From assembly GCA_020054475.1 (NCBI GenBank), contig JAHWGJ010000005.1:1025-65024 (forward strand): a stretch of DNA of 64,000 bases, in the 5' to 3' direction. This document shows, in pieces, positions 1,470 through 64,000 of the stretch; the first letter of the stretch is position 1; the number at the start of each line of letters is the position of its first letter. Origin of the DNA: Thermoplasmata archaeon (GTDB taxonomy: Archaea > Thermoplasmatota > E2 > DHVEG-1). The notes below the pieces were generated by a model. That model saw nothing but the letters and a program-made list of their open reading frames with translations. It had not been told where the DNA came from and did no database searches. The position numbers were made by a program, and so were the translations under genes.

Positions 1470-1544
1470 AAATTTCAATATCACCTTATTTATTAACAAA
1501 ATTTATATATTAATATTAACTAAAATAAATAGCAAGGGAGTTGT

Positions 1545-2834: not shown

Positions 2835-2854
2835 AAAATAAATTGATTAATAAA

Positions 2855-3790: not shown

Positions 3791-3847
3791 AATATATCAA
3801 ACCCATTATCAATTTGATTACTTATTAGATATATAAATAGATAATCT

Positions 3848-4399
3848 TTACTTTTTTAGAAAACCTAATGAAATAAGCTCCTTTGAAACCTTTTCAACTG
3901 CTATCGAAATATCATCCATATTTCTTGCACCTGCACATACAACTTTACCAGATCCAAATAATAACAAAGCAACCTTAGGTTCAGCTAACCTATATACAAG
4001 GCCCGGAAATTGCTCAGGTTCATATTCAACATTTTCTAAACCCAGTGCTACTGCAACTTCGCTTAGATTTAATTCTCCACCTAAATCAGAAGTTGCTACA
4101 ATATTCTGAATGACTATATCATGGTCCTTATATACTTTTACACCAATTTTTTCCAATTTCTCCGATATTATCTTAATATTAGTTTTTACATCACTAATGG
4201 TTTTTGCACCTGTGCAGTTTGCCGCCCCACTTCTAAATAAAAGTGTTGCTGTTTTTGGGTCACTCAAACGATAAACCAAGCCGGGAAATTGCTCAGGTTC
4301 ATATTCTGCTTCTTCTAATGATTGTGCTATCATATCTAGATCTAATTTTTCAGCAAAGGTTGTTGATGCTACAATATTTTGTACTTTAATTTCTATCAT
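3848..4399 (-). CDS. tbp: TATA-box binding protein
   Basis: Two internal repeats, each containing QNIVA...EYEPEQFPGLVYRL...LLF.SGK. 183 aa. Confidence 0.95.
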   Translation of the reverse strand: MIEIKVQNIVASTTFAEKLDLDMIAQSLEEAEYEPEQFPGLVYRLSDPKTATLLFRSGAANCTGAKTISDVKTNIKIISEKLEKIGVKVYKDHDIVIQNIVATSDLGGELNLSEVAVALGLENVEYEPEQFPGLVYRLAEPKVALLLFGSGKVVCAGARNMDDISIAVEKVSKELISLGFLKK

Positions 4400-4673
4400 A
4401 TATTATCCAATCCAAATAATTATTTTTTATATTTTATTGAATAACCAGAAATAACACATGCTTTATAATGTTAAGTATAATCAATTTTTCCGATTTTATT
4501 AATAAATAAACGATAAGAAATCACTTATTTTTAGTATCATACCTTTCTAATTTTTAAAAAATATAGAAAAAATTATTGATGTAATATTTAATATATTTGC
4601 AATAAAATCATTACCGTAAATTTTAAACACTATTTATTTTATTTATATTAATAATAATTATAGGAGAATTTAA

Positions 4674-6590
4674 ATGTTTAATAAATTATCATTAAAAATA
4701 ATATCAATACTAATAACAATTATCTTTATTATAACATGTTTTTCATCTGTTAATGCAAATAACTCCAAATTAAATTATATTGAATTAGAATTAAATTTTT
4801 CGCCTCCTGAGATTATACCTTATAATGAAAATATTATTATTAAAATAAAAGAACAGGATTTTAGCAGAATGGATTTTGGAAAACCAGTAATACCATATTG
4901 TTTATTTGAATATGATCTAATATTTGGCTCAGATATAATAAATATCGAATATGAAAATTCAAATCCAATTATATATAATCTAACACAACAAATTGCCAAA
5001 GCTTCATATCCTAGATTTGACAAATTGGATATTTACAATGATATTAAAAAAATTAATCCTCAAAATTCATACAATTCATATCCCTCAGATTGGGTCTCTT
5101 ATCATAAAGGTGGTGGAATAAAAAAAGGAATTCATAAGACATTTTTTTCATTAAGAGTATATCCCATAATTTATTATGAAAATGTTAATCAAATAAAATT
5201 CATAAGTAACATCACCATTAAAATTACATATCAAGAACCAGAAAAACCTATTCTTAATGATCCAGATGTTTATGATTTATTAATATTAACACCAACAAAA
5301 TATGAAGAATTATTAAATCCATTATCAGATCATAAAAACAATTTTGGGGTATCCACAAAAATTGTAACTTTAGATAAGGTATATGAAGAAATGTATTGGC
5401 ATGGTAGAGATAAACAAGAAAAAATTAAATATTTCATTAAAGAATCAATTGAAAAGTGGGGAATAACTCATGTATTATTGATAGGTGGATTAAATGGTCA
5501 AACAACTACATGGGATTTTCCAATAAGATATAGCCATGTTGTACCGCCGGATGAACAAGAATATGCAGAACAAACCTTCATATCGGATCTATATTATGCT
5601 GATATATATGATAGTAAAGGTGAATTTATAACCTGGGATTCAAATAATAATGATATTTTTTCTCAATGGAATGAAACATATAGAGAAGAAATGGATCTCT
5701 ATCCTGATGTATATCTTGGAAGATTACCATGCCGAAATACAAATGAAGTAAAGATAATGGTCAATAAAATAATTAATTATGAAAAAGAAAAACTAAGTAA
5801 TGAATGGTTTAAAAATTTACTACTAGTAGCTGGAGATTCATATAATGATACCGCACACTTTAATGAAGGCGAACTAATATCAAATAAAGCAATAGAGTTA
5901 ATGCCAGATTTTACCCCAATTAAGGTTTATTCATCGGAACAAGACATCAATCGTAAAACAGTAAATAATGCTATGAATCAAGGATCAGGATTCGCCTACT
6001 TTTGCGGGCATGGAAGCCCCGCATCATGGAGTACCCATTTTCCACCTGATGGAAACAAATGGACAACAGGTTATAATGTTAATGATATGATATTTTTAAG
6101 AAACAAAGAAAAATTACCAATTACCATTGTGGGGGGATGCCATAACGGTGAATTTGATGTTTCAATGATGAATATTATTGAAGGGATAATCGAACACGGA
6201 TTAAGAGAATATTTCTTTCAACCTCCTTTTTGGTTTTATTATAATGAATGGGTCCCCAACTGTTGGGCTTGGTGGCTAACCAGCAAATCAAATGGAGGAG
6301 CAATAGCAACAATTGCAAATACCGGACTTGGAACTCATGGGGAAGATGACTCTGATAATAATTCCATTGCTGATTATCTTGAAATTTTAGATGGATGGTT
6401 AGAATTGAAATTCCTTCAATTATATGGGGAAAACAATTTTGATTGTCTCGGAGAAAATCACGGGGATTCTCTATCTGGTTATTTAAATAGATTCCTTGGA
6501 GATAATGCTAAAATGGATGTAAAAATGGTTCAACAATGGGAATTATTTGGAGATCCAAGCTTAAAAATTGGCGGATATGATACAAAATAA
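4674..6590 (+). CDS. peptidase C25 (gingipain-like) family cysteine protease, secreted
   Basis: Signal peptide. Gingipain-like catalytic His (FCGHGSPASWS) and Cys (VGGCHNGEFD) contexts. YDLLILTP...LLIGG architecture. Paralogue of 50350..52329. Confidence 0.7.
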   Translation: MFNKLSLKIISILITIIFIITCFSSVNANNSKLNYIELELNFSPPEIIPYNENIIIKIKEQDFSRMDFGKPVIPYCLFEYDLIFGSDIINIEYENSNPIIYNLTQQIAKASYPRFDKLDIYNDIKKINPQNSYNSYPSDWVSYHKGGGIKKGIHKTFFSLRVYPIIYYENVNQIKFISNITIKITYQEPEKPILNDPDVYDLLILTPTKYEELLNPLSDHKNNFGVSTKIVTLDKVYEEMYWHGRDKQEKIKYFIKESIEKWGITHVLLIGGLNGQTTTWDFPIRYSHVVPPDEQEYAEQTFISDLYYADIYDSKGEFITWDSNNNDIFSQWNETYREEMDLYPDVYLGRLPCRNTNEVKIMVNKIINYEKEKLSNEWFKNLLLVAGDSYNDTAHFNEGELISNKAIELMPDFTPIKVYSSEQDINRKTVNNAMNQGSGFAYFCGHGSPASWSTHFPPDGNKWTTGYNVNDMIFLRNKEKLPITIVGGCHNGEFDVSMMNIIEGIIEHGLREYFFQPPFWFYYNEWVPNCWAWWLTSKSNGGAIATIANTGLGTHGEDDSDNNSIADYLEILDGWLELKFLQLYGENNFDCLGENHGDSLSGYLNRFLGDNAKMDVKMVQQWELFGDPSLKIGGYDTK

Positions 6591-6818: not shown

Positions 6819-7154
6819 AATTTTAACCTCCGCAACAGGAATACATATCTTATGATTTAAACCTTTCCTTATTTTTACAGATATAAACACTATAAATCTC
6901 TTTTTTTTCAGGAGTTTTTTTTATATAAAAAAAATAAACAATTAAATATAAAAAAACAAGATTTTAGTCATTTGTTATTAAAGAAATAATTTTTCATATT
7001 AATTCGCTAATTTAACTAATTTCTTAGTTTAAACACGATAAAGTAAATCATAACTTGATAATATACTACTCTTGAGATTAGGTGATTTTATTAATCAACA
7101 ACAAATAACTTTATAATATAGTCCAATATAGCGGCTGAAAAAGTTGATGATATT

Positions 7155-7394
7155 ATGATTAATGCATATATCCTTCTATCTATGAAGCCTGGTAAATCTG
7201 ATACGGCTATACTAAAAATGAGAAAAATTGAAAATGTTGAGAAAATATCAATAGTAGCCGGAGATTATGACATTGTAGTCAGAGTTCACGTTAAATCTTT
7301 GGAGAAATTACTTATTGTAACTGATAAACTTCAAATGATAGAAGGCGTTAGAAAAACAACTACCCAAGTAATTGAAAAAGAAATAGCATTATGA
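7155..7394 (+). CDS. stand-alone Lrp/AsnC-type ligand-binding (RAM) domain protein
   Basis: 79 aa with the pattern AYILLSMKPG...VAGDYDIVVRV typical of the AsnC_trans_reg fold. No HTH domain. The stop overlaps the next start (ATGA). Confidence 0.7.
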   Translation: MINAYILLSMKPGKSDTAILKMRKIENVEKISIVAGDYDIVVRVHVKSLEKLLIVTDKLQMIEGVRKTTTQVIEKEIAL

Positions 7395-8635
7395 GAATAA
7401 GAAAAAGATATTTATTCTATGTTCTAGCATTCGCCTCTACAATTATTGCTGCAGGTGTATCATCAATAGATGCTACAATAAACTCTCTTTTTATTCCAAA
7501 TGCTTGGGCTTTTAGTTTTTCATGTTTTTTAATTGGAACAGGAATTACATTTATTATTTTATTAATTTTTTCAATTCCAATCAATAAGACAAAAAGTTTA
7601 GGTGCAAAAATTATTGACCCCTCCTTTAATAAAATTAGATTTATTAGAAAATCTGAAATTAAATATCATACAATAGCAGGTTTAGGTAATTCCATTCTAA
7701 CTATTGGATATATCTCATTAATTTCAATATTAGGTGATCCAGCAGCGGTCCTCCCTTTTACCCAAATTGTGATTTTATATCTTATTATTATAGAATCAAT
7801 TATTGAAAAGGATACCCCTACGTTAATAGAAATCCAATCTGCAATTATTGTAACCTTTGGAGCAATCCTGGGATCAATATCCTTAACAGGGGATATAAAT
7901 CTAATATCATTAGCTATTGTATTCCTAATAGTAAATCCAGCATGGGTCATATTCTCAATTTATCAAAGAAAATTAAAATTATTAAAAATTGATGATAAAC
8001 CAAATGATTCTTTAAATATCAGATTCTGGAATGTGATATTTGCATGTATTTTTACTTCTATTATAATTATAACATATGATTTTTTAATAGGAACAGAATA
8101 TTTACTAGAGGGAATATCCGTATCAATCAAATATTTTAACTGGGTAGCATTAACAATGGTAGTTACTTTCTTCTCATATGTTTTTTATATACGTGCACTA
8201 GGTATAGGTAAAGCCAGTGTAACACAAGCAGTAAGAGCAACAGTAGTTATTTTTGTAATTCCCTTTTCTTTATTGTTATCATATTTTAATATAATTCCAC
8301 CTTTTACAACTGATCCCGTAATGATATTAATAAAAATAATTGGAACAATACTAGTATTACTAGGGATATCAACATTCGCTCTGTCACTATTAAAAGCTTA
8401 CGTTTTCATAAATGTAAAACCAGGATATCCCATAAAAGAAACAATGGATAAACTATGGAATATTCATGGAGTAACAAGAGTAACAGTAATAGCCGGAAAA
8501 TATGATTTCATGATAAAAATTAGAATACGAACCCTAATGAAAGGTTATGAAAAAATAATTAAAAAAATAGAAGAAATCGAATCAATAAAAGAATATAAAT
8601 GGTTTTCAGTTCTAAGAGAATGGGAAGAAATTTAA
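7391..8635 (+). CDS. polytopic membrane protein (DMT/EamA-like) with C-terminal RAM domain
   Basis: About 10 hydrophobic helices. The C-terminal ~80 aa (AYVFINVKPG...IAGKYDFMIKIRI) are homologous to the preceding 79-aa ORF. Confidence 0.65.
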   Translation: MRIRKRYLFYVLAFASTIIAAGVSSIDATINSLFIPNAWAFSFSCFLIGTGITFIILLIFSIPINKTKSLGAKIIDPSFNKIRFIRKSEIKYHTIAGLGNSILTIGYISLISILGDPAAVLPFTQIVILYLIIIESIIEKDTPTLIEIQSAIIVTFGAILGSISLTGDINLISLAIVFLIVNPAWVIFSIYQRKLKLLKIDDKPNDSLNIRFWNVIFACIFTSIIIITYDFLIGTEYLLEGISVSIKYFNWVALTMVVTFFSYVFYIRALGIGKASVTQAVRATVVIFVIPFSLLLSYFNIIPPFTTDPVMILIKIIGTILVLLGISTFALSLLKAYVFINVKPGYPIKETMDKLWNIHGVTRVTVIAGKYDFMIKIRIRTLMKGYEKIIKKIEEIESIKEYKWFSVLREWEEI

Positions 8636-8690
8636 TATAATTTAAAAAACTATTTCACTAAAGAGTATATAACATCAATAAGGTATATTT

Positions 8691-9794
8691 ATGACAGATG
8701 ATAGACTAAAAAAATTAGCAAAAATCTTAATCAACCATTCCCTTAGAATTAAAAAAGATGATTTTTTCATGATTTCAGGAGGAATAAAATCAGCTCCTCT
8801 GATAAAAGAAGTTTTTGAACAATCATTAGAAATTGGAGCAAATCCATTTATTAGAACTGGTTTTGAAGAATTAGCAGAAATATTTTATAAAAAAGCATCC
8901 GAAAAACAACTTAAATTTATATCGCCCTTATCAAAACTTGAAATTCAAAAAATTGATGCTAAACTAGCAATAATAAGTCCAGAAAATACAAGAAATATGA
9001 CTAATATAGATCCAAAAAAACAAGTAATAAGTAGTATTGCACAACAACCGATTCAAGATATCTTCCTAAAAAGAGCAGCATCTAAAGAATTAAGATGGTG
9101 CATAACTCAATATCCAACACATGCATCAGCCCAAGATGCAGAAATGTCACTTAGCGAATATGAAGATTTTATATTTAATGCAGCACATATTAACTCAAAA
9201 AACCCAATTGAATATTGGAAAAAAACCTATAAAAATCAAGAAAAAACCAAAAAACTATTGGAGAAAAAAAGGAAATTACAAATATTTGCAAAAAACACAG
9301 ATTTAACAATAAAAGTTGAAAATAGAAAATGGATAAATTGCTATGGAAAAGAAAATTTTCCAGATGGAGAAATTTTTACAGGACCTATTGAAAACTCAGC
9401 TGAAGGATATATAAACTATTCATTCCCCGCTGTTCATGGTAGCAGATTAATAGATGATATAAACCTTTGGTTCAAAAAAGGAAAAATCGTTAAATCTAAA
9501 GCATCTACTGGTGAAAATTTTCTAAAAACAATGATCAAAATGGATAAAGGATCACAAAGAATCGGAGAATTTGCATTTGGAACAAATTATGGCATAAAAA
9601 AATATACAAAAAATACATTATTTGATGAAAAAATTGGAGGAACAATACATGTTGCAATAGGCTTGGGATTCCCAGAGACGGGAAGTAAAAATAAATCAAG
9701 CTTACATTGGGATATGGTATGTAATCTAAGAAAAAATGGGGAAGTATATGCCGATAACGAATTAATTTATAAAAATGGAAAATTTTTAATTTAA
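8691..9794 (+). CDS. aminopeptidase, M29 (AmpS/PepS) family
   Basis: N-terminal LKKLAKILINHSL...KKDD and C-terminal GEFAFGTN...FDEKIGGTIHVAIG...HWDM motifs typical of M29. Confidence 0.85.
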   Translation: MTDDRLKKLAKILINHSLRIKKDDFFMISGGIKSAPLIKEVFEQSLEIGANPFIRTGFEELAEIFYKKASEKQLKFISPLSKLEIQKIDAKLAIISPENTRNMTNIDPKKQVISSIAQQPIQDIFLKRAASKELRWCITQYPTHASAQDAEMSLSEYEDFIFNAAHINSKNPIEYWKKTYKNQEKTKKLLEKKRKLQIFAKNTDLTIKVENRKWINCYGKENFPDGEIFTGPIENSAEGYINYSFPAVHGSRLIDDINLWFKKGKIVKSKASTGENFLKTMIKMDKGSQRIGEFAFGTNYGIKKYTKNTLFDEKIGGTIHVAIGLGFPETGSKNKSSLHWDMVCNLRKNGEVYADNELIYKNGKFLI

Positions 9795-9841
9795 TAAAAT
9801 AAAAAACCTATAAATATCCTTTTTTCATTAAGAGTTATATA

Positions 9842-11269
9842 ATGTGTGGTATAGTTGGAATTATTGGGGGAAAACCTGTATCTCGTTTAATATATCATAG
9901 TTTATTTGCAATACAACACAGAGGACAATCATCTGCTGGAAGTTTAATCTATGATGGAAATATCCATGTGACAAAAGATGTGGGTTTGGTAAGAGATGTA
10001 TTTAATGAAGAAAAAAAAATTGATATTCCCGGCAATGTTGGCATAGGACATACGAGATATTCAACAGCAGGAATGGATGATATCGAATCATTAAAAAAAA
10101 ATGCTCAACCAGAATACCTCGTCAATCCCTTTTTATCAGCAGTTCATAATGGTAATATATATAATACCTCCGAAATGGCAAAAAAAACAAATAGAATTCC
10201 AAGAACCGATTGTGACATACAATGGCTACTACTAACATTGGCAGATAATCTATTTAAAAAAGAAATAAATGAAAAAAATATTGCAAAATCATGCAGAAAA
10301 ATTATAAAAGAACTTAAAGGAAGTTATTCAGCATTATTCCTAGCAGATTCAGGAGGTAACCCATATCTATTTGCAATAACCGATCCATATAAAATAAGAC
10401 CTTTAGTATTAGGAAAATCTAATGGATTATACTGCCTAACTTCAGAAACAAGAGTATTTAAAAAGATTAATTTTCAATATGTAAAAGATATACCCGGTGG
10501 GTCAATTGTAATCATAGATGAAAAAGGTAATATCTTTGAAAAACAGATAATAAAAAAACCTGAAAAACCATGTATGTTTGAATTTGTTTATTTTGCAAAA
10601 CCTGATTCTCGAATTAATGGCAGATCCGTCCATAATGTTCGAATAGATTTAGGGCGAAACCTTGCAAAAGAATTTCCAGTACATGCAGATATTGTAGTAC
10701 CAGTACCAGAATCTGGTAGAAGATATGCAACAGGATTCTCAAGAGAATCAGGCATTCCTCTAGAAGAAGGACTCATGAAGGATAAAGATGAAAGATCTTT
10801 TATTCATCAAACACAAGAAAACAGAGATAAAGTTGTCAAGGAAGGTCTTTCATTTCTTAGATCTGTATTAAATAATAAACGTGTCGTATTAATTGACGAT
10901 TCAATAGTGCGAGGAACAAATATAAGAAAACTAGTGAAAGGAGTAAAAGATGCTGGAGCTAAAGAAGTTCATATAAGAATTGGATGCCCCCCATTAGTTG
11001 CTCCTTGTTACCTTGGAATTGATATGCGTAGTAGAAAAGAATTCTTAGCTCGAGATGAAAAAGGAAATATAAAAAACTATAATGAAATAGCTAAAGAAAT
11101 TGGTGCAAATACCTTAGCATATATTAGCATGTCTGCCCTAAGGAAAGCTATAGGATTTGATACATGTAGAGGATGTATAGATTTTCCAAATGGATATCCC
11201 CCTGAAATGAAAAAAGATGTATTAGAATTATTTAAAAAAGAAGGAACAAAAATGAGAGCTTATGAATAA
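9842..11269 (+). CDS. purF: amidophosphoribosyltransferase
   Basis: Ntn-type MCGIVGI start. PRPP-binding VVLIDDSIVRGT motif. Confidence 0.95.
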   Translation: MCGIVGIIGGKPVSRLIYHSLFAIQHRGQSSAGSLIYDGNIHVTKDVGLVRDVFNEEKKIDIPGNVGIGHTRYSTAGMDDIESLKKNAQPEYLVNPFLSAVHNGNIYNTSEMAKKTNRIPRTDCDIQWLLLTLADNLFKKEINEKNIAKSCRKIIKELKGSYSALFLADSGGNPYLFAITDPYKIRPLVLGKSNGLYCLTSETRVFKKINFQYVKDIPGGSIVIIDEKGNIFEKQIIKKPEKPCMFEFVYFAKPDSRINGRSVHNVRIDLGRNLAKEFPVHADIVVPVPESGRRYATGFSRESGIPLEEGLMKDKDERSFIHQTQENRDKVVKEGLSFLRSVLNNKRVVLIDDSIVRGTNIRKLVKGVKDAGAKEVHIRIGCPPLVAPCYLGIDMRSRKEFLARDEKGNIKNYNEIAKEIGANTLAYISMSALRKAIGFDTCRGCIDFPNGYPPEMKKDVLELFKKEGTKMRAYE

Positions 11270-11308
11270 ATCATAAAACCTTTTTTTTTCATTAATAATT
11301 AATTAAAT

Positions 11309-11617
11309 ATGATAGAAATAAAATCTGGTACTGATGAGGAACAAATTATTAAAATTTTACAAAAATCTTATCCAATTACAGTATCAGATATTGAAGAAAA
11401 ATTACATATTTCAAGAGATAAAATTTTAAGGATCCTGCAAAAACTTCAAGTTAAAGGTATAATTCAACTTGAGCCTCTACCAAATAAGATATATGTAAGA
11501 CTCAAAAGAAATGATTTTAAATTTATTGGTAAAAAAAGACAAAGAAAATTCGTTAAACATCATTCATCAGGTAAAAATTACAAATCAGATGAATATGATG
11601 GAATTATGTATTCCTAA
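11309..11617 (+). CDS. small winged-helix-like protein with basic tail
   Basis: 102 aa. The ITVSDIEEKLHISRDKILRILQKLQVKGII segment resembles a wHTH. No specific family recognised. Confidence 0.45.
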   Translation: MIEIKSGTDEEQIIKILQKSYPITVSDIEEKLHISRDKILRILQKLQVKGIIQLEPLPNKIYVRLKRNDFKFIGKKRQRKFVKHHSSGKNYKSDEYDGIMYS

Positions 11618-11635
11618 ACAAGTGAAAAATTCATA

Positions 11636-12028
11636 TCATTCAATAATTTCAACAACATGATTATTAACAATTAAAAATTCAACTAATTCTCCAGATTCCT
11701 TTAATTGTTTTAACATATTATAATCTAAAACGTGTTCATAATCCAAAGAAGCTCTACTTCCACTATCAGACCAACTACCAATTGAAATTTTTTTTAAATC
11801 AAAATCTTTTACACCTCCAAGCACTTTAAAAGATTCTGATCTTAACTTAAATGAACAAGAACTACATTCAATTATTGTATCAAAACTGATATAGTTTTCA
11901 TCTGAACTATTTATTGGATCTATTTGAGATATAATCATATCTTTACCACATTTTGGGCAACTCATATATTCATTACTTTCTTTCCAAGCATCTGATAAAA
12001 TATTTGCATCCCTCTTGCTATACTCCAT
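11636..12028 (-). CDS. hypothetical zinc-ribbon protein
   Basis: CPKCG...(x)...CSSCS pair. 130 aa. No family recognised. Confidence 0.45.
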   Translation of the reverse strand: MEYSKRDANILSDAWKESNEYMSCPKCGKDMIISQIDPINSSDENYISFDTIIECSSCSFKLRSESFKVLGGVKDFDLKKISIGSWSDSGSRASLDYEHVLDYNMLKQLKESGELVEFLIVNNHVVEIIE

Positions 12029-12288
12029 TATACTATACCTCCTATCTTCCTATTAGTAAATATAAAATGAAAAAATTAACTAAATAAAAACATGTTAATT
12101 TATTCCATCCATCTTAAATATAATATTATTAATCGTTATCATTAATTAAATTTTTCATTAAAATGTAATATTTAACATAATTATTATTAGAAATATTTGA
12201 TTTTATAATAATAAATTAAATAATTTTCCATTTACAAATCTCCTAAAATTATAAAAAAAATTTAAGGAAATTATACAATTATGATTTT

Positions 12289-12516
12289 TTAAAATTTAAT
12301 AATAGCATCCAAAAGACCATGACCATAATTAATACATCCAAAAGCAGTGAAAAAATCATTTTTATCAAAATAATAAATCGAATCAGTATAATATTGAGTC
12401 GCTAATTCAACAACCTTGCTATCATAAATTAATTTTTTTTTCTTTAATTCCTCAAGATTCACCTTAAACAGCTCTATATCTTTTTGTATCCTTGTTTTTT
12501 CATCCATCAAAATCAC
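12289..12516 (-). CDS. DUF357-like small archaeal protein
   Basis: 75 aa. C-terminal ...AFGCINYGHGLLDA pattern recalled from DUF357. Assignment from memory only. Confidence 0.5.
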   Translation of the reverse strand: MILMDEKTRIQKDIELFKVNLEELKKKKLIYDSKVVELATQYYTDSIYYFDKNDFFTAFGCINYGHGLLDAIIKF

Positions 12517-12578
12517 TAATCAACAAACTACAATATATCATAAATTTTTCTATAATGACATGTGGTATCAATAAATTT

Positions 12579-13238
12579 TCAAACAATAACACTACCACCT
12601 AATAAAATTGAAGTCATGAAACATAAAATTGCAGTTATAAATCCTACTAATAACATTTGCAATCCATATTTAATCATACTTTCATCACTTATTTTGGCAA
12701 GATATACTCCTAATAAAAGTAATGATATCATAGTTAAAATTATAGAAACATAGAACGCTGTAATAGTATTAAATAATCCAAATCTAACTAAAATAAATGG
12801 AGAAACAACTAACATAGCGGCAAGAGCTGGAGAAAAACCATCAACAATTGCAGCAAATATTGAGGCAAATCTATGACTCTTATAATGTAGACCATTGGTT
12901 AAATCAGTTAACATTGCTTTCTCTAATTCCTTTAATTTTTTTGTCCGTTCTGCCTTTTCAGTCATATACGCTCCACTAATACCTGATGCCCCCATTGCTA
13001 TTGATCCTGCAACTCCCGCACTTATTATAGGCATTGGATTAAAAATTCCAGCCATAAATGCGCCAATAATTACCCCTAGCATGGTGAGAGCACCATCAAA
13101 AGCATTCATTACAAAATATCTTCGAGTGATATCACCAACTTCAGAAATTTGATAATATCTTTTCCATCTTTCTAATAAATCTATTATTCTTTTCTTTATC
13201 ATATAGTATATCAACTTCTTCGATTTCCTAATAATCAA
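12579..13238 (-). CDS. VIT1/CCC1-family membrane protein (putative Fe/Mn transporter)
   Basis: ITRRYFVMNAFDGALTMLGVIIGA motif, a cytoplasmic EKAERTKKL..LEKA helix, and 5 hydrophobic helices. Confidence 0.65.
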   Translation of the reverse strand: MIIRKSKKLIYYMIKKRIIDLLERWKRYYQISEVGDITRRYFVMNAFDGALTMLGVIIGAFMAGIFNPMPIISAGVAGSIAMGASGISGAYMTEKAERTKKLKELEKAMLTDLTNGLHYKSHRFASIFAAIVDGFSPALAAMLVVSPFILVRFGLFNTITAFYVSIILTMISLLLLGVYLAKISDESMIKYGLQMLLVGFITAILCFMTSILLGGSVIV

Positions 13239-13807: not shown

Positions 13808-16047
13808 ATGTTAGGCCAATAGCAAAATTTCTTGTTAAACGACCAAGAATTGTTCTATTAATTTTTACAATTATCACTATCATCATTGGAACTCAGGCAA
13901 CAAATATTTACATGGAATCAGATTTAGCAAGCTTCCTACCTTCAGATGAACCAACAATACAACTATGGAATAAAATTGATAAAGAATTTCAGATTGGTTC
14001 CATAATAATCATATACGTTGAAGCTGATGATATCAGAGATCCAGAGGTTTTAAAGGAAATGGATCGTGTAAGTTCAAGCCCTAAACTGAATAAATATGAA
14101 AATGACGAAGGGATAATAGACGGTATTTATTCTGTAAATAGTCTAGCCTCCTATATAAAAAAGGAAAATGCGAAACCTTATATTATTGGAGGATTAGGTG
14201 GAACTGGAAAAAATGAAATTCCAGATGACGAAAACTTGATATCAAACTATATGTCAAGGTATACTATACAAGGTCTGAAGGGAACACTTTTTACTAATAC
14301 TTATGACATTGCAGTTATTTTATTACAACTTGCTGATAATGCAAACTATGATGATATTTTAAATAGAACAAAATCCGCTATTGATCATAGGGGTACTTTC
14401 TATTCTGAAATGACAGTTACTGGAACAACTGCAATGCAAAAAGCAATTCAAAATGCAAGTATGGAATATTTCAGAATAATTTTTATTGTAGCTGTGATTT
14501 TAGTAGCAGCCGTTCTTTTTATTTTTCATAGAAATTTTAAAGGTGTTTTAATCGCATTACTTCCAACAGCATGTGCAATTGCTCTTACTTTTGGTGTTTT
14601 AGGTATAATCCAACCTGAATTAACTATAATCTCTGTTGCTATAGTTGCATTATTATTGGGGCTAGGTGTAGATTATTCTATCCATATAATGAATAGATAT
14701 GCTGAAGAAAATTCTCAAAATAATGAAATTTTAAAAATGGAAAAAATTTTAAAATCAACTGGTAAAGCAATATTACTTTCAACCATTACAACTATGATAG
14801 GTTTCGCATCATTAATGATTTCAAGTATGTCGCCAGTCGTAATATTTGGATTTGGCTGTGCACTTGGAATATTTTTTTGCTTTATATCTTCAATAATTTT
14901 AGCTCCAATATTATCATTATTATTAAAATTTAAAAAGGAAGAAAAAATGATAACTTGGGGAAAAATTACAATAATTATTTTAAATAACAAAAAAAGAATC
15001 ATTGTGATTGCGATTTTTTTTGCATTTATGTCACTTTTAGTATTACCTCAAACCGAAACTGATGTAAATTACTTTAATTTAGCTCCACCAGATATTCCTG
15101 AACTTGAAAAATTACTAGAATATTCAGATAATTTTGGAGGGGCAAATTTTAATGCAATACTAATCGAAACAGAGCCTCAGGGACTTACATATCCTGAAAC
15201 AATTGATGCAATATATAATATGGAAACGGAAATGAGATCTGAAGGTGTTGATTTATTCTCAATTGCAGATGAACTTAAAAAAATTAATGATATACTTAAA
15301 AGAGATGAAATAATTGAACGATTAGGTGATTTAGCAGGTGTTGATACAATAATTTTTGATACCATTGCGGAAGGTGGATTAGTAGATGAATATTTTTCAA
15401 AAACAATTATTCTTGTTTATATACCATTTGGAATTGATATGGTAGAAACTGAAAAAATGATAAACAAAATAAATAAAATTTCATCAAAAACAATTATTCC
15501 ACATAATGGTTATGCTTCACAAATCACAGGTCAAGATGCAATTAATGTTGCAATAAATAAGAAATTAACAGATGAACAAACACGTTCAATGATTATTGCT
15601 TTATTACTTGTATTAGCTGCGTTAATATTAATTTTTAATTCATCCATATATGGTTTTTTAACAATGATTCCCGTTGCATTTGTTTTAATGTGGGAACCTG
15701 GATTTTTAGTAGCATTTAACATTCCGCTATCAGTTTTAACAATTTCAATCGCTTCAATAATGATTGGTATTGGAATTGATTATGGAGTACATATTACTCA
15801 TCGAGTTAAAGAAGAAATGAATAAAGGATTATCAAAATCTGAATCAACAAAAATCGCAATTCAAAAAACTGGTTTTTCCCTTGTTGAAGCAGCATGTACA
15901 ACTATAGCTGGAATTGTTGCAATTTATATAACAAATATTCAAGGTCTTCAACAATTTGCATTACTAATAATATTAATGACAGCATTTTCTTGTATTGCAG
16001 CGGCTCTTATATTACCGGTATTTTATGATTTAAAATTTGTAAAATAA
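13804..16047 (+). CDS. RND superfamily transporter, MMPL/HAE3-type
   Basis: Two 6-TM bundles, each with GxGxDYxxH (GLGVDYSIHIMNRY and GIGIDYGVHITHRV), and two large loops. Confidence 0.8.
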   Translation: MNVRPIAKFLVKRPRIVLLIFTIITIIIGTQATNIYMESDLASFLPSDEPTIQLWNKIDKEFQIGSIIIIYVEADDIRDPEVLKEMDRVSSSPKLNKYENDEGIIDGIYSVNSLASYIKKENAKPYIIGGLGGTGKNEIPDDENLISNYMSRYTIQGLKGTLFTNTYDIAVILLQLADNANYDDILNRTKSAIDHRGTFYSEMTVTGTTAMQKAIQNASMEYFRIIFIVAVILVAAVLFIFHRNFKGVLIALLPTACAIALTFGVLGIIQPELTIISVAIVALLLGLGVDYSIHIMNRYAEENSQNNEILKMEKILKSTGKAILLSTITTMIGFASLMISSMSPVVIFGFGCALGIFFCFISSIILAPILSLLLKFKKEEKMITWGKITIIILNNKKRIIVIAIFFAFMSLLVLPQTETDVNYFNLAPPDIPELEKLLEYSDNFGGANFNAILIETEPQGLTYPETIDAIYNMETEMRSEGVDLFSIADELKKINDILKRDEIIERLGDLAGVDTIIFDTIAEGGLVDEYFSKTIILVYIPFGIDMVETEKMINKINKISSKTIIPHNGYASQITGQDAINVAINKKLTDEQTRSMIIALLLVLAALILIFNSSIYGFLTMIPVAFVLMWEPGFLVAFNIPLSVLTISIASIMIGIGIDYGVHITHRVKEEMNKGLSKSESTKIAIQKTGFSLVEAACTTIAGIVAIYITNIQGLQQFALLIILMTAFSCIAAALILPVFYDLKFVK

Positions 16048-27584: not shown

Positions 27585-28697
27585 ATGAAAATAGCAATGA
27601 TTGGATGGGAATATCCGCCATTTAAAGCTGGCGGACTGGCAACTCACTGTTATGGTCTTACTCGAAGTCTAGCTGATAAAAATATAAATATTGATTTTTA
27701 TATGCCAAAAACAAAACAAAAAGTATCAAGTGACAAAAAAAATTTAATAATAAAAGAAATAGGGGAAACCGAAGTTTTTCCATATGATAGACCTGAAGAT
27801 AAAGAATTAGAAGGACATTTTTTTGAAAGTGTTTATCGCTATAATGATCTTATAGTAGAAAAAGTTGAAGGAAATTATGATTTAATACACTGCCATGATT
27901 GGCTAACAATGAAAGCAGGTATAAGATTAAAAGATAAATTGGGAATTCCCTTGATATTAAGTGTGCATTCAACAGAGTATGATAGATCAGGATGGATTTA
28001 TCCAAATCAATGGTTCATTGATATTGAGAAGGAGGGAATGGAAAAAGCTGATAAAATTATTGCAGTAAGTCATTTCACAAAAAGAGTAATAGTTGAAAAA
28101 TATGGAATAAATCCGAATAAAATATCCGTCGTTCATAATGCAGTCTATCCCCTTGGAAAAGATAAGAAAAAAAATATTGTATTATTTTTAGGAAGATTGA
28201 CAATACAAAAAGGACCAGAATTTTTTTTAAGAGCTGCAAGAAAAGTATTAGATTATTTAGAAGATACTCAATTTGTAGTTGCCGGTACAGGTGAAATGTT
28301 ACCTGCTTTAATAGATAAAGCTGTTGATCTAGGTATATCAAATAAAGTAATATTTACTGGTTTATTAACAGAAGATGAGGTTAAACATATTTATAGAATT
28401 TCAAGTGTTTATATAATGCCTTCAGTAAGTGAACCTTTTGGAATTACGGCATTAGAAGCAATTTCAGCAGGGACTCCTACAATAGTTTCAAAAACAGCAG
28501 GAGTTGCAGAAGCATTTAATAATTGTTTAAAAGTAGATTTTTGGGATATAGATGAAATGGCAAATAAAATAATATCACTGATAAAATATGACCCATTGCA
28601 TAAAACCATAACCAAAGAAGGAATGCAAGAAATAAATCTATTTACATGGAAAAGAGTAGCAGAAAAAACAATCGACGTCTATAGAGGAGTCTCTTGA
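27585..28697 (+). CDS. glgA: glycogen(starch) synthase-like GT-B glycosyltransferase
   Basis: N-terminal MKIAMIGWEYPPFKAGGLATH (K-x-GGL). C-terminal EPFGITALEAISAGTP. Context with GH57, debranching enzyme and phosphorylase. Confidence 0.75.
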   Translation: MKIAMIGWEYPPFKAGGLATHCYGLTRSLADKNINIDFYMPKTKQKVSSDKKNLIIKEIGETEVFPYDRPEDKELEGHFFESVYRYNDLIVEKVEGNYDLIHCHDWLTMKAGIRLKDKLGIPLILSVHSTEYDRSGWIYPNQWFIDIEKEGMEKADKIIAVSHFTKRVIVEKYGINPNKISVVHNAVYPLGKDKKKNIVLFLGRLTIQKGPEFFLRAARKVLDYLEDTQFVVAGTGEMLPALIDKAVDLGISNKVIFTGLLTEDEVKHIYRISSVYIMPSVSEPFGITALEAISAGTPTIVSKTAGVAEAFNNCLKVDFWDIDEMANKIISLIKYDPLHKTITKEGMQEINLFTWKRVAEKTIDVYRGVS

Positions 28698-28698
28698 T

Positions 28699-29883
28699 AT
28701 GACTTCCATATGTCTATATTTTGAAGTACATCAACCATTCAGATTAAATCGCTTTTCAGTTTTTAATATAGGAGAAAATAATAAAAGTTATTCAAATTAT
28801 TTTAATAAAAAGTTAAATCAAGAAATATTTGAAAAAGTTGCAAGGAAATGCTATATACCAACAAATCAACTTTTACTAGATTTAATTAATAAAAATGAAG
28901 GAAAATTTAGAATATCTTTCAGTATAACAGGAACATTTTTTGAATATTGTGAACAACACATACCATCTGTTATTGACAGCTTTAAAGAGTTATTTAAAAC
29001 AGGTGCAGTAGATCTAATAGAAGAAACCTATTTCCATTCACTATCAAGTCTTTATGATGATCTCGATGAATTTGAAGATCAAGTAAAAATGCATCGACAA
29101 CTGATAAGAAATTTATTTAACTACTCACCAAAAGTATTTCGTAACACTGAAGCCATTTATGATAATAGAATCGCTAAAAAAGTAGAAGAAATGGGCTATA
29201 AAGGAATTATAACTGAAGGAACAGAAAAAATTTTACATTGGAGATCACCAAATTATATCTATAAAGCAATTAATTCCAATTTAAAAGTATTATTAAGGAA
29301 CTATAATCTAAGTGATGATGTAGGGTTTAGATTTTCTTCACAAAATTGGAATGGATTTCCATTAACAGCAGATAAATATGCAAATTGGATGGCAAAAACA
29401 GATGGAAATTTAATTAATTTATTTATGGATTATGAAACCTTTGGTGAACATCAATGGACTGAAACAGGTATTTTTAATTTCCTTGAACATTTACCTGGAG
29501 AAATTTTAAAACATAACCATCTTGATTTTGTAACTGTTAGTGAAGCAATTGATAGATATGACATAATGGGGGAAATAGATGTTCCCTGGGCAATTTCATG
29601 GGCCGATGAAGATAGAAACGTTTCAACTTGGCTCGGAAATGATATGCAAATAGCATGCTTTAATGAATTAAAAAATATAGGAAAAAAAATAAAAAATACT
29701 GGAAATCAAGATTTAATCAATACCTGGAGAAAATTACAAACTTCTGATCACCTATATTATGTTTCAACAAAAGGATTCAAAGATGGAGCAGTACATTCAT
29801 ATTTTAGTCATTACGACAGCCCATATGAGGGATTCATTAATTATATGAATATACTTCAAGATTTAAAACAAAAAATCATATAA
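28699..29883 (+). CDS. glycoside hydrolase family 57 (alpha-amylase/branching-type)
   Basis: ICLYFEVHQPFRL start, ...DYETFGEH..., W..DED motifs typical of GH57. Confidence 0.85.
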   Translation: MTSICLYFEVHQPFRLNRFSVFNIGENNKSYSNYFNKKLNQEIFEKVARKCYIPTNQLLLDLINKNEGKFRISFSITGTFFEYCEQHIPSVIDSFKELFKTGAVDLIEETYFHSLSSLYDDLDEFEDQVKMHRQLIRNLFNYSPKVFRNTEAIYDNRIAKKVEEMGYKGIITEGTEKILHWRSPNYIYKAINSNLKVLLRNYNLSDDVGFRFSSQNWNGFPLTADKYANWMAKTDGNLINLFMDYETFGEHQWTETGIFNFLEHLPGEILKHNHLDFVTVSEAIDRYDIMGEIDVPWAISWADEDRNVSTWLGNDMQIACFNELKNIGKKIKNTGNQDLINTWRKLQTSDHLYYVSTKGFKDGAVHSYFSHYDSPYEGFINYMNILQDLKQKII

Positions 29884-60400: not shown

Positions 60401-60502
60401 ATGTCGGAGGATTTTTCAAAACATTTGGAAAAAAGAATAAAGGAAATGCGGGAAAGAATGGCAAAATCTAAGCTACATGGAACAAAGAAAGGAAAATATT
60501 GA
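60401..60502 (+). CDS. possible 33-aa basic peptide
   Basis: GGTGAGG SD 4-5 nt before the ATG. Translation: MSEDFSKHLEKRIKEMRERMAKSKLHGTKKGKY. No homology recognised. Confidence 0.3.
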   Translation: MSEDFSKHLEKRIKEMRERMAKSKLHGTKKGKY

Positions 60503-60663
60503 ATTATTAATATAATAGATATAATTTTAAATATAATTAAAATATTTAATATTTATCTTCTTTTGTTAATAAATTATACATGTTTTCATAAAAAATAATT
60601 ATCCATATCTGTTGAACAAAATTAGATTACATTGAAAATTTAACAAAACCCGACTAATTTTAA

Positions 60664-60780
60664 ATGGGCTTATCCGAGCTCGAGTTGCCTTACAGTAGAG
60701 ATTACTCTGGATTGTCCCCAATTTTTGGGGTCAACTCAAAGCCCGGTCCTTTTTCACTTTAAATCCTTTTTTTCTTTTTA
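60664..60780 (+). repeat. conserved ~115-nt element, copy C (candidate structured RNA or recombination site)
   Basis: Aligns with 62874..62994. Contains AGAG-ATTA-CTCT and CCCCAA-TTT-TTGGGG hairpins, possible closing helices GGGCTT/AAGCCC and GAGTTG/CAACTC, then T5/T7/T5 runs. Confidence 0.6.
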
Positions 60781-60869
60781 AAAATTAAATTTTTTAGTAA
60801 TACTTTTGAACAATATTTACATATAATTAATGATTATTAGATGATGACAGATGTTGGGGGAGACATTCA

Positions 60870-62102
60870 TTGGATTATTCTTTATGGTTAATAATCGGTG
60901 GATCTAGTGCTATTGCCTTTTACATGGCTTGGAGCATTGGTGCAAATGATGTTGCAAATTCAATGGCTACTGCTGTTGGTTCAAAAGCTATTACATTTAA
61001 ACAAGCTGTGGTTATTGCAGGTGTTCTTAATTTTATTGGAGCTGTTTTTGTGGGCCCTCATGTCGCTGAAACTATTAAAGGTAAAATCATTAATGTTGAT
61101 ATTATTGCACCCGAGATTTTATTACTTGGTTTCATTTCTTCTATTCTTGCTGCTGCAATTTGGGTTACATTATCAACATGGAAAGAGATGCCGATTTCAA
61201 CGACTCATTCAATTATTGGAGCTATGATGGGTTTTGGATTAATTGCAGGTGGAATTTCACTTGTAAATTGGATGAAAGTTGGATCAGTCGCTGCAAGTTG
61301 GGTATTGTCTCCACTTGCTGGATGTGTATTAGCATTCATTATTTTTAAAATTATAATTAAACTAATTTTTGCAAAAGAAAATCCAGTTGAATCTGCTAAA
61401 ATAATAGGTCCTTTAATTATTGGTGTAACAGCTTTTTTAATAACTTCATCTTTATTATTAAAAACATCTTTAGGGGATAGACTAAAAGTTTCTGATTTTG
61501 AAGTATTGTCAATTTCATTAGTTATAGCAGTTATTATTTCATTAATTGGTATAATTCTACTTAGAAAGATAAAATCAAAATCAGTTGAGGATTATAAAAC
61601 AGTAGAAGGAATCTTTAGAAAACTGCAGGTAATAACATGTTGTTATGTTGCTTTTTCACATGGTGCAAATGATGTAGCAAATGCAATTGGACCTGTTGCA
61701 GGAATTATCCCTCTTGCAAGTACAGGAGAATTGAATCCCACTGCTCAAATCCCAACTGCCCTTTTAGCCCTCGGTGGTTTTGGAATTGCATTTGGTTGTA
61801 TGACTTGGGGAAGAAAGGTTATGGAAACTGTGGGTAAGAAAATAACAAGTTTAAATCACACGAGAGGTTTTTCTGTTGAATTTGCAGCTGCAACTACTGT
61901 TCTCGTAGCTTCAAAACTGGGTTTACCAATATCAACATCGCATACTGTTGTTGGGGCAGTTATAGGTGTTGGACTTGCTAGGGGTTTGGAAGCTGTTGAT
62001 ATCGCAATTATAAAGAAAATTGTTGTTTCATGGCTTCTTACCTTACCTGTTGCTGCTTTAACCTCAGTGGTAATTTTTATATGTTTGAGATTTATATTAT
62101 AA
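60870..62102 (+). CDS. pitA: inorganic phosphate transporter, PiT family
   Basis: Duplicated GANDVAN signature (aa ~24 and ~266). 10-12 TM helices. TTG start 8 nt after GGGGGAG. Confidence 0.9.
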   Translation: MDYSLWLIIGGSSAIAFYMAWSIGANDVANSMATAVGSKAITFKQAVVIAGVLNFIGAVFVGPHVAETIKGKIINVDIIAPEILLLGFISSILAAAIWVTLSTWKEMPISTTHSIIGAMMGFGLIAGGISLVNWMKVGSVAASWVLSPLAGCVLAFIIFKIIIKLIFAKENPVESAKIIGPLIIGVTAFLITSSLLLKTSLGDRLKVSDFEVLSISLVIAVIISLIGIILLRKIKSKSVEDYKTVEGIFRKLQVITCCYVAFSHGANDVANAIGPVAGIIPLASTGELNPTAQIPTALLALGGFGIAFGCMTWGRKVMETVGKKITSLNHTRGFSVEFAAATTVLVASKLGLPISTSHTVVGAVIGVGLARGLEAVDIAIIKKIVVSWLLTLPVAALTSVVIFICLRFIL

Positions 62103-62125
62103 AATTATAGGATTGTGTGAAATTG

Positions 62126-62824
62126 ATGGTTAAAAAAAGAGATCATTTTAGAGCCCCTGTTTCAGATACTTTTAGAAGAAAATCCCCTTTTAGACAATTA
62201 CTTCTACATATGAAAAAAGTCAGAAAATGTATTGATATCCTTGGAGAGGGTTTAGTTATATATTACAAGGGGGATTATAAATCGTTTTCAAAATTATCTA
62301 AAGATGTATCAAAAATTGAACATGAAGCCGATTTAATAAAACGAAACATTAGAAATCATCTTCCCAAAACACTTTTTATGCCTGTTGATAAAGGTAAATT
62401 TTTATGGGCATTGAGAGAAGAAGATAAAATCCTTGATCATGCTGAAAATCTTGTTAAAATGCTTGAAATGAGACATACAAAGATACCAAAAGAATTACAA
62501 GATATGTTCATTAATCATTTGGAATTAGTTGTAAAAACAGTAAGTACTGTTGAAGATGCTGTAAAACATATAATGAATTTACTTGAAGCAAGTTTTATTC
62601 AGAGGGAAAGGGAACATGTTAAGCAATATATCTATCAAGTTCATCAACATGAGTGGGAAGCAGATCAGATTAAAATGAACATAAATAAAAAAATCTATGA
62701 GATTGAAAAAAAATTAGCCCCCATGGATGTTTATCATTTATTAAAAATCGCTGATTGGGTGGATGATATTGCTGATCATTCAGAGAATGTTGCAGATTGG
62801 TTAAGATCAATGATTGCAAAATAA
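62126..62824 (+). CDS. DUF47 / PhoU-like phosphate-transport regulator (Pit accessory protein)
   Basis: Helical protein with E.EAD..KR and W.DDIADHSE motifs, adjacent to pitA as in the known pit-DUF47 pairs. ATG 62126 preferred over the GTG at 62117. Confidence 0.85.
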   Translation: MVKKRDHFRAPVSDTFRRKSPFRQLLLHMKKVRKCIDILGEGLVIYYKGDYKSFSKLSKDVSKIEHEADLIKRNIRNHLPKTLFMPVDKGKFLWALREEDKILDHAENLVKMLEMRHTKIPKELQDMFINHLELVVKTVSTVEDAVKHIMNLLEASFIQREREHVKQYIYQVHQHEWEADQIKMNINKKIYEIEKKLAPMDVYHLLKIADWVDDIADHSENVADWLRSMIAK

Positions 62825-62873
62825 TTAATTATAACTGTTAAAAGTATATAAAAAGATATTTAAATATATATAT

Positions 62874-62994
62874 ATGAGCTTAGCCGAGAGTGCTATGTCT
62901 TAAAGGAGAGATTACTCTGGGTAGCCCCCCCCATTTTTGGGGTCAACTCAAAATCTAGTCCTTTTCACTTTAAAATCCTTCTTTTTTACTTTTT
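62874..62994 (+). repeat. conserved ~115-nt element, copy D
   Basis: ATGAGCTTAGCCGAG...GAGAGATTACTCTGG...CCCCATTTTTGGGGTCAACTCAAA...GTCCTTTTCACTTTAAAATCC. Same orientation as copy C, 2210 nt downstream of it. Confidence 0.6.
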
Positions 62995-63214
62995 AATATT
63001 TTTTATTATATATTTTCCATTAGAAATTAAGGGAATGTTGAGTTTTATCATAATTTTTAAGTACATAACTATTTAACCTAATATATCGTATATAGTTATA
63101 GAAAAGAGTAAAGATAATAACTTAACTATTTCGTTTTTTCAAAATTTTTAAGATATTTTATTTTTGATTCTTTAATACATTCCAGACCTAAATGATTTGA
63201 GGAGGTGATATACA

Positions 63215-63511
63215 ATGAACAATAATGCTAAAAAAATTCAAAAAATAATAAAATCAAGAAATACCCATAAAATAATCTATCAACAGTCAAAAATAATGAA
63301 AGGAAACTCATTTGTAAATTAGGTATTTCAACAAGCAAATAAATCTAAAATTAGGATAAACATGTTAAAAAATTGCAGATATGTATATTGTAGACAAAAA
63401 TTTCTAACTTAAGAATCTTTAAAAAATTACTTGATAAAAGTTGGAACATACATATAAAATCTTCTTGATAATATACAAAAATTATCAGAATTGATATTTT
63501 TACTATTATGA
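63215..63511 (+). pseudogene. mini-ORF 1: 98 codons to TGA, interrupted by in-frame TAG (63320), TAA (63410) and TAA (63455)
   Basis: Strong SD GAGGAGGTGA (63199-63208) 6 nt before the ATG. Contains CRYVYCRQKFLT*ESLKNYL. The terminal TGA overlaps the next ATG. Confidence 0.4.
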
Positions 63512-63654
63512 AAAAATATGTAGAAAATAAGATGGTTTATATGAAAATAAAATGTTAATATTGTGGAAATATTTTAGATTATCAAGGTAAATCTAAATGG
63601 TATTTAGCTTGTCCAAAATGTTAAAATACAATAAACATTAAAGAATTAAAATGA
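63508..63654 (+). pseudogene. mini-ORF 2: zinc-ribbon protein interrupted by in-frame TAA (63556, 63622)
   Basis: MKKYVENKMVYMKIKC*YCGNILDYQGKSKWYLACPKC*NTINIKELK. ATGA overlaps at both ends. Confidence 0.5.
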
Positions 63655-63676
63655 AATGCTAGGAAAAGATGAAATA

Positions 63677-63787
63677 ATGAAATGTCCATTGATTTTAAAA
63701 ACTATAGAGTCGCAGGATTGCATTGAAGATAAATGTTATTTTTATAAATTAGATAACAGTAATTGCAAATGGATGGTGACTAAATGA
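63677..63787 (+). CDS. mini-ORF 4: 36-aa Cys-rich protein (intact under the standard code)
   Basis: MKCPLILKTIESQDCIEDKCYFYKLDNSNCKWMVTK. ATGA overlaps at both ends. Confidence 0.4.
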   Translation: MKCPLILKTIESQDCIEDKCYFYKLDNSNCKWMVTK

Positions 63788-63912
63788 AAATAATGATTTG
63801 CATAGAATGCGGTTATAAGATGAAACAACATGGAAAATTTGAATTCATATATTACTGCAACAATATTCTATGCAAATATAACAAGTCATTTGTTACAAGA
63901 AAGGGATTATAA
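63784..63912 (+). CDS. mini-ORF 5: 42-aa zinc-ribbon-like protein
   Basis: MKIMICIECGYKMKQHGKFEFIYYCNNILCKYNKSFVTRKGL, then TAA. The next ATG is 2 nt downstream. Confidence 0.45.
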   Translation: MKIMICIECGYKMKQHGKFEFIYYCNNILCKYNKSFVTRKGL

Positions 63913-63913
63913 A

Positions 63914-64000
63914 ATGAATGGTGATAAAAAATTTAAGGAAATCTATGATAAATTTGGTGGGAGTTATAGCAAGATTATTGAAGAACAGCTTAGGATACTA
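63914..64000 (+). CDS. 5' part of a further ORF running off the window
   Basis: MNGDKKFKEIYDKFGGSYSKIIEEQLRIL... 29 stop-free codons to the window edge. Confidence 0.4.
   Translation, partial: MNGDKKFKEIYDKFGGSYSKIIEEQLRIL

Follow-up and report, generated by a model that had tools for sequence, protein, structure and literature searches.

The last 786 nucleotides (nt; positions 63215 to 64000) of a 64 kb stretch of DNA from a Thermoplasmata archaeon, the whole of which is referred to here as the window, contain a series of very short open reading frames (ORFs) on the forward strand, the first of which are interrupted by in-frame TAA and TAG codons. These ORFs very probably represent one decaying copy of a modular cluster of mini-genes, in which three nonsense mutations have struck two genes, now dead, and in which the genetic code is the standard one. 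The window ends at 64000, i.e., 786 nt into the cluster, and 63215-64000 would accordingly be just the upstream part of one copy, the mini-genes of which have 30 to 65 codons and would code for Zn-ribbon, C2H2 zinc-finger and ribbon-helix-helix (RHH)-like proteins. The cluster seems to be common and patchy in related sediment Thermoplasmatota, and would behave like mobile-element-derived DNA, inserted here 3' of the phoU gene of the host. Its distal genes f4, f5 and f6 are intact, and the proximal C2H2 finger and Zn ribbon (f2) are dead, presumably because selection was relaxed on genes that could be dispensed with, in a genome of about 27% G + C in which mutation is biased towards AT. The reading phase would have been kept only because few indels accumulated in this lineage, and the intact mini-proteins may serve the element as regulators that bind nucleic acids.

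The original prediction, made from the sequence of the window, had described a chain of ATGA-coupled frames and had offered two explanations for the internal stops, namely a remnant of an integrated element with nonsense mutations, or an element in which TAA and TAG are read through or reassigned. The former is essentially right, but two of the stops turn out to be native, the mutational route proposed for them is wrong and the ATGA chain is unremarkable.

The in-frame stop codons and the decay of the proximal mini-genes

Direct reading bears out the coordinates of the Shine-Dalgarno (SD)-like sequence GAGGAGGTGA, which lies 6 nt 5' of ATG 63215 and is identical in the orthologous locus L092 (see below), of ATG 63215 itself, and of the TGA/ATG overlaps at 63508, 63651, 63677 and 63784. 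Likewise, the in-frame codons TAG 63320 and TAA 63410, 63455, 63556 and 63622 are all present, as is the CxxC...CxxC peptide MKIKC*YCGNILDYQGKSKWYLACPKC*NTINIKELK (asterisks denoting stops). The presumed 9-codon bridge does have TGA/ATG overlaps at both ends, but it holds a TAG and a TAA and is no gene, and TAA 63910 is indeed followed by a start codon, although at 63914 and not at 63915. The observation as such is accurate but only partly non-random. In particular, the four ATGA junctions had been put forward as part of a non-random combination, but when 63215-64000 was shuffled 2000 times with its dinucleotides preserved and read with TGA as the only stop, a chain of at least four such junctions turned up 363 times (18%). 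Also, the reported lack of frameshifts is partly an illusion, as the 98-codon frame consists of a pair of distinct mini-ORFs and of spacers, all in one phase by chance. Only three of the five stops taken as nonsense codons are nonsense mutations (TAA 63410, 63556 and 63622), whereas TAG 63320 and TAA 63455 are native terminators.

With respect to composition, the G + C content is about 27% across the window and 22% in its last kilobase. A host-trained codon log-likelihood did not separate any short segment from shuffled sequence (z from -0.2 to 1.7), the conserved genes f4 to f6 included, and coding-potential scoring against shuffles, which had been suggested as a check, is uninformative at these lengths when based on host codons. 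Since composition-based tests are thus powerless here even for conserved genes, only the comparison with relatives can decide.

Such relatives were sought by a peptide-pattern scan of metagenome contigs for f4, f5 and f6, which gave 80 loci, most of them with the same f4-f5-f6 order; their record names suggest that the source samples were mostly marine and estuarine sediment. The nucleotide identity of these related loci to the window is about 78-83% and has a sharp onset at about 63667-63676, at the start of f4. One metagenome contig, L092, has 95% nucleotide identity over 62827-63994 and is thus an orthologous locus from a close relative. Judged by these alignments, the comparative signal is clearly non-random, with homologues in other loci for the Zn ribbon, the C2H2 finger, f4, f5 and f6. 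That the segment is merely AT-rich intergenic DNA without gene ancestry would agree with the host-codon potential of every segment being within about 1.7 standard deviations of the shuffles, with the non-significant ATGA chain, and with the two spacers 63458-63507 and 63655-63676, for which no homology was found among the related loci. However, pure chance has next to no probability in view of the specific homologues of f1N, the finger, f2, f4, f5 and f6 and of the roughly 80% nucleotide identity over f4-f6 in dozens of loci.

The first mini-ORF, f1N, has a homologue in locus L104 (3066-3173; MEDATEKLKKMMKSRKNQKIIYKQSNIILKNSIVD*) that is 42% identical to it in an alignment of 43 positions (tblastn E 3e-4) and terminates with TAG at the aligned codon equal to TAG 63320. 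In L092, f1N stays open, with 4 substitutions (3.7%).

For the second mini-ORF, homologues are found in seven loci (L086, L087, L083, L144, L104, L073 and L102), and those in all but L102 are intact and of the same length. The family reads M.K.(C)RCIYCG.KF.TEE.LKDHMIKFGTHV*, with the finger pattern C-X2-C-X12-H-X6-H, and the window copy aligns with it codon for codon (best tblastn E 4e-9), TAA 63410 being aligned to GAA (Glu) in the intact homologues and TAA 63455 to the family's own stop. In addition, the window finger is without three of its four zinc ligands (Cys to Tyr, TGT to TAT; His to Tyr, CAC to TAC; His to Tyr, CAT to TAC). Compared to the family consensus it has, by the author's reading of the alignment, 10 changes from G/C to A/T and 3 in the reverse direction, as would be expected of neutral drift towards A + T. 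L100 (1283-1384 and 4766-4867) and L102 (8447-8548) likewise hold decayed copies, with Gly GGA changed to TGA and Cys to Phe, and the C2H2 mini-gene has been lost repeatedly within the cluster family. C2H2 zinc-finger DNA-binding proteins are known from archaea and their viruses (PMC3541406), and the intact relatives resemble these in their finger pattern and in weak matches to Pfam zf-C2H2 (for an intact homologue against zf-C2H2_4, 23.7 bits and E 6.5e-5, below the cut-off of 27). Unlike them, the finger family has just 31 residues and Pfam scores below the gathering cut-offs, and the window copy, having a nonsense codon and three ligands lost, is non-functional.

Intact homologues of the Zn ribbon f2 (MKNKVVYIKVKCEKCGHSWNYDGKSKWYLACPKCKNTININELTEKDRIK*) are present in L119, L126 and L127 (best tblastn E 1e-14), with GAA (Glu) aligned to TAA 63556 and AAA (Lys) to TAA 63622; one TAA of the window copy falls inside the first CxxC knuckle. 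A weak match to f2 in L051 was rejected as generic C-terminal zinc-ribbon similarity. Each internal stop is therefore one base away from its homologous sense codon, through GAA to TAA twice and AAA to TAA once, and not through the CAA to TAA changes that had been presumed. Sense codons in homologues, together with the lack of a suppressor tRNA, had been named as the mark of plain pseudogenes, which holds for these three stops (GAA, GAA and AAA in the homologues) but not for the other two, which are native.

The orthologue L092 keeps GAA at 63556, shares TAA 63622 and has lost the f2 start codon (ATG to AAG); its finger is short of additional Cys residues, with a nonsense codon that comes one codon later than 63410, and its f1 region shows two 1-nt indels. 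The window and L092 diverge by 9.4% in the finger (plus one indel), 8.0% in the spacer following it and 6.8% in f2, as compared to 1.8% in f4, 3.2% in f5 and 2.5% in f6. The dead ORFs are under relaxed constraint, as seen from their 2-4-fold higher divergence, their lost ligands and the independent lesions in L092. The same data bear on the possibility that assembly or sequencing errors created the stops in intact genes, for which one might invoke that the region is rich in A/T homopolymers, that the organism is uncultured and that L092 differs from the window in f6 by, among others, a single nucleotide within a run of A. Yet the stops are substitutions and not homopolymer indels; the independently assembled L092 shares TAG 63320, TAA 63455 and TAA 63622 and has a nonsense codon one position from 63410; and the accompanying missense losses of ligands point to real decay, which makes such errors a scarcely credible source of the stops. 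In its single-base changes from sense codons to TAA, loss of key residues, raised divergence and independent lesions in an orthologue, the segment resembles ordinary prokaryotic pseudogenes under AT-biased pressure. It differs from these in that the genes are unusually small, so that few stops mimic recoding, and in that neighbouring mini-ORFs in phase mimic one long frame.

According to another explanation, f1N is a real leader gene and the decayed ORFs form a 5' leader or upstream ORF region, or yield truncated peptides, that tune the expression of f4-f6. L092 has kept both the strong SD and f1N of the window, and a non-coding block further upstream is conserved with L104; TAA 63622 is common to both orthologues and spares all four Cys residues, and a 30-residue product with four Cys is still possible in L092; and ATGA coupling is typical of the cluster family. 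There is, however, no positive sign of function, the divergence is 2-4 times that of f4-f6, the two orthologues have different disruptive changes, and the window copy has a stop inside its first CxxC knuckle. A regulatory role of this kind is therefore improbable, if somewhat less so than a chance or error origin. The block in question (63052-63175) is matched in L104 upstream of the f1N homologue and may be a shared promoter or leader.

The intact genes and the genetic code

Stop reassignment or programmed readthrough would mean that TAA and TAG are translated, that TGA is the terminator, and that f1 and f2 are full-length and functional. A TGA-only reading does give frames of 98 and 48 codons, ATGA-chained behind a strong SD, and the Zn-ribbon geometry is kept across the stops. 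Reassignment of TAG or TGA reportedly occurs in phages and uncultured bacteria, and superficially the segment is like these recoded phages in having conserved-looking ORFs with in-frame stops and no frameshifts. Unlike in recoded phages, however, the stop positions match no single residue but Glu, Glu, Lys and two native stops, and the same codons terminate members of the same families in a host with the standard code. Thus, the f6 family stops at TAA in 49 of 86 cases, at TGA in 34 and at TAG in 3; the F7 family uses TAG in 20 of 31 cases and TAA in 10, and the ZR14 family uses TAG in 13 of 17. Within the window, f5 stops at TAA, and the long ORFs stop mostly at TAA (33, as opposed to 10 at TGA and 1 at TAG). 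Furthermore, the search for a suppressor tRNA (anticodon UUA or CUA) that had been suggested gave none in the 64 kb window, where ARAGORN found only tRNA-Lys(CTT), nor in 23 long related loci, which have ordinary tRNAs only.

A large recoded gene was also considered for the ORF-poor 1.3 kb within the 3.48 kb unit of L100, which was read with TAA, TAG or TGA as sense, and was rejected, as stops of every kind are spread over each of the frames. Recoding and readthrough are rejected because there is no suppressor tRNA in the window or the 23 related loci, because the families stop at all three codons and because there is no hidden large gene in the L100 unit. Together with the differing aligned residues, the GAA of L092 at one stop, the frameshifts and the lost start of the latter, the lost zinc ligands of the finger and the frequency of equally long ATGA chains in shuffles (see above), this refutes the second of the two original explanations, which retains only a vanishingly small probability. 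The genetic code is the standard one.

The value of this result is mainly negative, in that a recoding-like pattern in an archaeal element comes down to ordinary pseudogenisation plus a coincidence of phase. It also calls for caution in scans of AT-rich genomes, where very short genes can make one or two nonsense mutations resemble a change of code.

In contrast to the dead proximal ORFs, f4, f5 and f6 seem to belong to families under purifying selection. The pooled dN/dS values are 0.25, 0.23 and 0.22, respectively, although they were computed on ORFs preselected as intact and are thereby biased downward. In f5 and f6, variation falls mainly on the third codon position, with an entropy by codon position of 0.24/0.13/0.63 in f6 when the frame is set to 63914. 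f6 is the most conserved member and near-invariant over MNGDKKFKEIYDKFGGSY, which is partly an effect of the patterns by which the loci were retrieved. ATGA overlaps such as that between f4 and f5 of the window recur in the family, between f5 and f6 in 23 loci and between f4 and f5 in 13, alternating with 4-5-nt spacers. Comparison with Pfam and PHROGs gave generic, mostly sub-threshold Zn-ribbon, C2H2 and RHH matches only. The coordinates of all features are compiled in Table 1.

Table 1. Features of the mini-gene cluster and its upstream region in the window
Feature	Position	Strand	Remarks
Conserved non-coding stretch	63052..63175	+	80.6% nucleotide identity over 124 nt to L104 2579-2698; conserved in L092
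SD-like GAGGAGGTGA	63199..63208	+	Direct reading; identical in L092
f1N, mini-ORF of 35 codons	63215..63322	+	Apparently intact; TAG 63320 is the native stop
C2H2 zinc-finger pseudogene, 31 codons	63362..63457	+	TAA 63410 nonsense; TAA 63455 native stop
Spacer, tail of the 98-codon frame	63458..63507	+	Without homologue alignment; 8.0% divergence and one indel compared to L092
f2, Zn-ribbon pseudogene, about 50 codons	63508..63654	+	Nonsense codons TAA 63556 and TAA 63622
Short spacer, the former 9-codon bridge	63655..63676	+	Contains TAG and TAA; not a gene
f4, intact Cys-rich mini-gene of 36 codons (MKCP...C....C......C)	63677..63787	+	71 ORFs in 51 loci
f5, intact Zn-ribbon mini-gene of 42 codons (CxxC...CxxxxC)	63784..63912	+	67 ORFs in 67 loci
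f6, first 29 codons of a gene of about 46-50 codons, cut by the window end	63914..64000	+	86 ORFs in 72 loci

Architecture and possible mobility of the cluster

The longer loci are modular, in the order F10 (on the minus strand), then RHH, ZR14, an acidic protein, K-rich ORFs, C2H2, f4, f5, f6, ZR8, a second f4-like ORF and F7, optionally followed by F22, ZR16 and ZR25. Their host neighbours vary by locus and include GH57 plus glycogen synthase, TBP, TFB, Alba, proteasome alpha, radical-SAM and tRNA-Ser genes, and presence or absence of the cluster varies among close relatives and genomic contexts. In L102, positions 7259-12700 hold two diverged tandem units of 3.4-3.6 kb with 81-96% identity, and in L100, positions 1-5701 hold 1.6 near-identical units with a period of 3483 bp and 99% identity; these repeats could be due to tandem integration or, in L100, to a circular form. 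The cluster is best described as a patchily distributed, mobile-element-like island of mini-genes.

Such mini-gene content is found in archaeal integrated elements or "dark matter islands" (Makarova et al. 2014, PMC4158269). As in the latter, the cluster consists of tight operons of 30-90-codon ORFs with Zn-ribbon, C2H2 and CopG/RHH-like content, is patchy between close relatives and without database homologues, and is occasionally linked to a tRNA gene and a tyrosine integrase. Unlike in archaeal virus and plasmid elements, no capsid, replication or consistently linked integrase gene was found, nor any match in the virus, phage and plasmid collections searched, and the clusters have housekeeping genes on their flanks and in some cases form tandem units of 3.4-3.5 kb.

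Neither an exact 40-mer search nor a peptide-pattern scan found anything in IMG/VR, and tblastn gave no match in phage and plasmid collections. A word-indexed protein search with the concatenated mini-ORFs of the window had no match, and the same search with concatenated family representatives gave a single chimeric JGI protein of 207 aa; exact-protein look-ups of PhoU (with two alternative starts) and of f5 found nothing on record. The cluster genes are essentially absent from the protein collection searched. The intact part of the cluster belongs to a set of widespread, strongly conserved tiny Zn-binding protein genes of uncultured sediment Thermoplasmatota with no representation in the libraries of proteins, viruses and plasmids that were searched; it illustrates the unannotated small-protein and mobile "dark matter" in these archaea, and the cluster family offers a modest lead.

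Several points weigh against the interpretation as a decaying copy of a mobile-element-like cluster, most of them concerning its mobile part. A match to archaeal viruses or plasmids, of which the original prediction had called such ORFs typical, did not appear in IMG/VR or in the phage and plasmid collections searched. In the related loci, the cluster has no regular association with an integrase or replication gene: tyrosine integrases (Phage_integrase) occur only in L087, beside tRNA-Met, and in L118, 5-9 kb away from the cluster, and most loci show none. The end of the window at 64000 hides the rest of the element, its ends and any integrase. A mobile-element origin is accordingly putative, and rests on patchy distribution and gene content. 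As to the genes themselves, f1N is supported by one weak homologue only, and the preselection of intact ORFs affects the dN/dS values as stated above.

No att-type repeat with a tRNA 3' end was found in the window, nor is there a tRNA near 63000. The glgA-GH57 operon of the window (27585-29883) is contiguous and cluster-free, and relatives have clusters around these genes. A comparison of empty and filled sites at glgA-GH57 was tried and abandoned, as it gave no clean insertion ends and the gene order is also rearranged in the relatives.

A bolder and rather doubtful possibility is that the cluster is an undescribed small multicopy element of sediment Thermoplasmatota with a unit of about 3.4-3.5 kb. 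Such an element would comprise only ORFs of at most 90 codons on two divergent strands none of which would code for an integrase, Rep or capsid protein; it would spread between intergenic sites and form tandem arrays, presumably by means of host or helper machinery, and would escape protein databases through the small size of its genes.

Two loci have tRNA-associated repeats. In L102, 16 nt of the G + C-rich 3' end of tRNA-Ser(GGA) recur 12.7 kb away (295-310 and 13025-13040), bracketing the clusters. The same repeat also brackets genes for TBP, Alba, an aIF-1A-like and a cold-shock-like protein and has an att-like look; no integrase was seen inside. In L087, where the integrase gene (14334-15682) is a neighbour of tRNA-Met, 14 nt of the 3' end of this tRNA recur 8.6 kb away at 7013-7026, immediately adjoining the cluster; a separate integrated element may here abut the mini-gene cluster.

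The phoU neighbourhood

Relatives of the PhoU-like gene that ends at 62824 were found in 71 genome loci, which without exception come from uncultured Thermoplasmatota. The closest genome, L001, has 88% DNA identity over 60760-62850 only, i.e., over the pit-phoU operon (L001 8644-10734); the similarity ends just past the phoU stop codon and both flanks are unrelated. None of the 71 phoU loci has the content of 62851-64000, either by DNA or by peptide. The metagenome-assembled genome that contains L001 also has a second pit-phoU copy with 74% identity (L041). The segment that holds the pit-phoU operon may thus itself be variable or have been exchanged.

A direct repeat of about 140 nt (60661-60796 and 62871-63008, 73-75% identity) flanks pit-phoU and carries a CCCC-ATTTTT-GGGG hairpin followed by GTCAACTCAAA. 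This repeat has no match in Rfam even at a relaxed threshold, and among the related loci it is found only in L092; an Rfam search of 60550-64000 at gathering thresholds and at a relaxed E-value gave nothing beyond one tRNA-Lys elsewhere.

In L001, the genes 3' of phoU code for a beta-lactamase-like hydrolase and a repeat-rich secreted protein (L001 11021-16457). Distant homologues of these genes are located at 234-2834 of the window, with about 70% nucleotide identity over short stretches, a relation that may reflect paralogy or rearrangement.

Finally, a 33-codon ORF (MSEDFSKHLEKRIKEMRERMAKSKLHGTKKGKY) at 60401-60502 on the plus strand has 46% identity over 28 aa to family F21, with a tblastn E of 1.6e-4 in a search against the window alone, and may be what is left of another mini-gene, on the opposite flank of pit-phoU.

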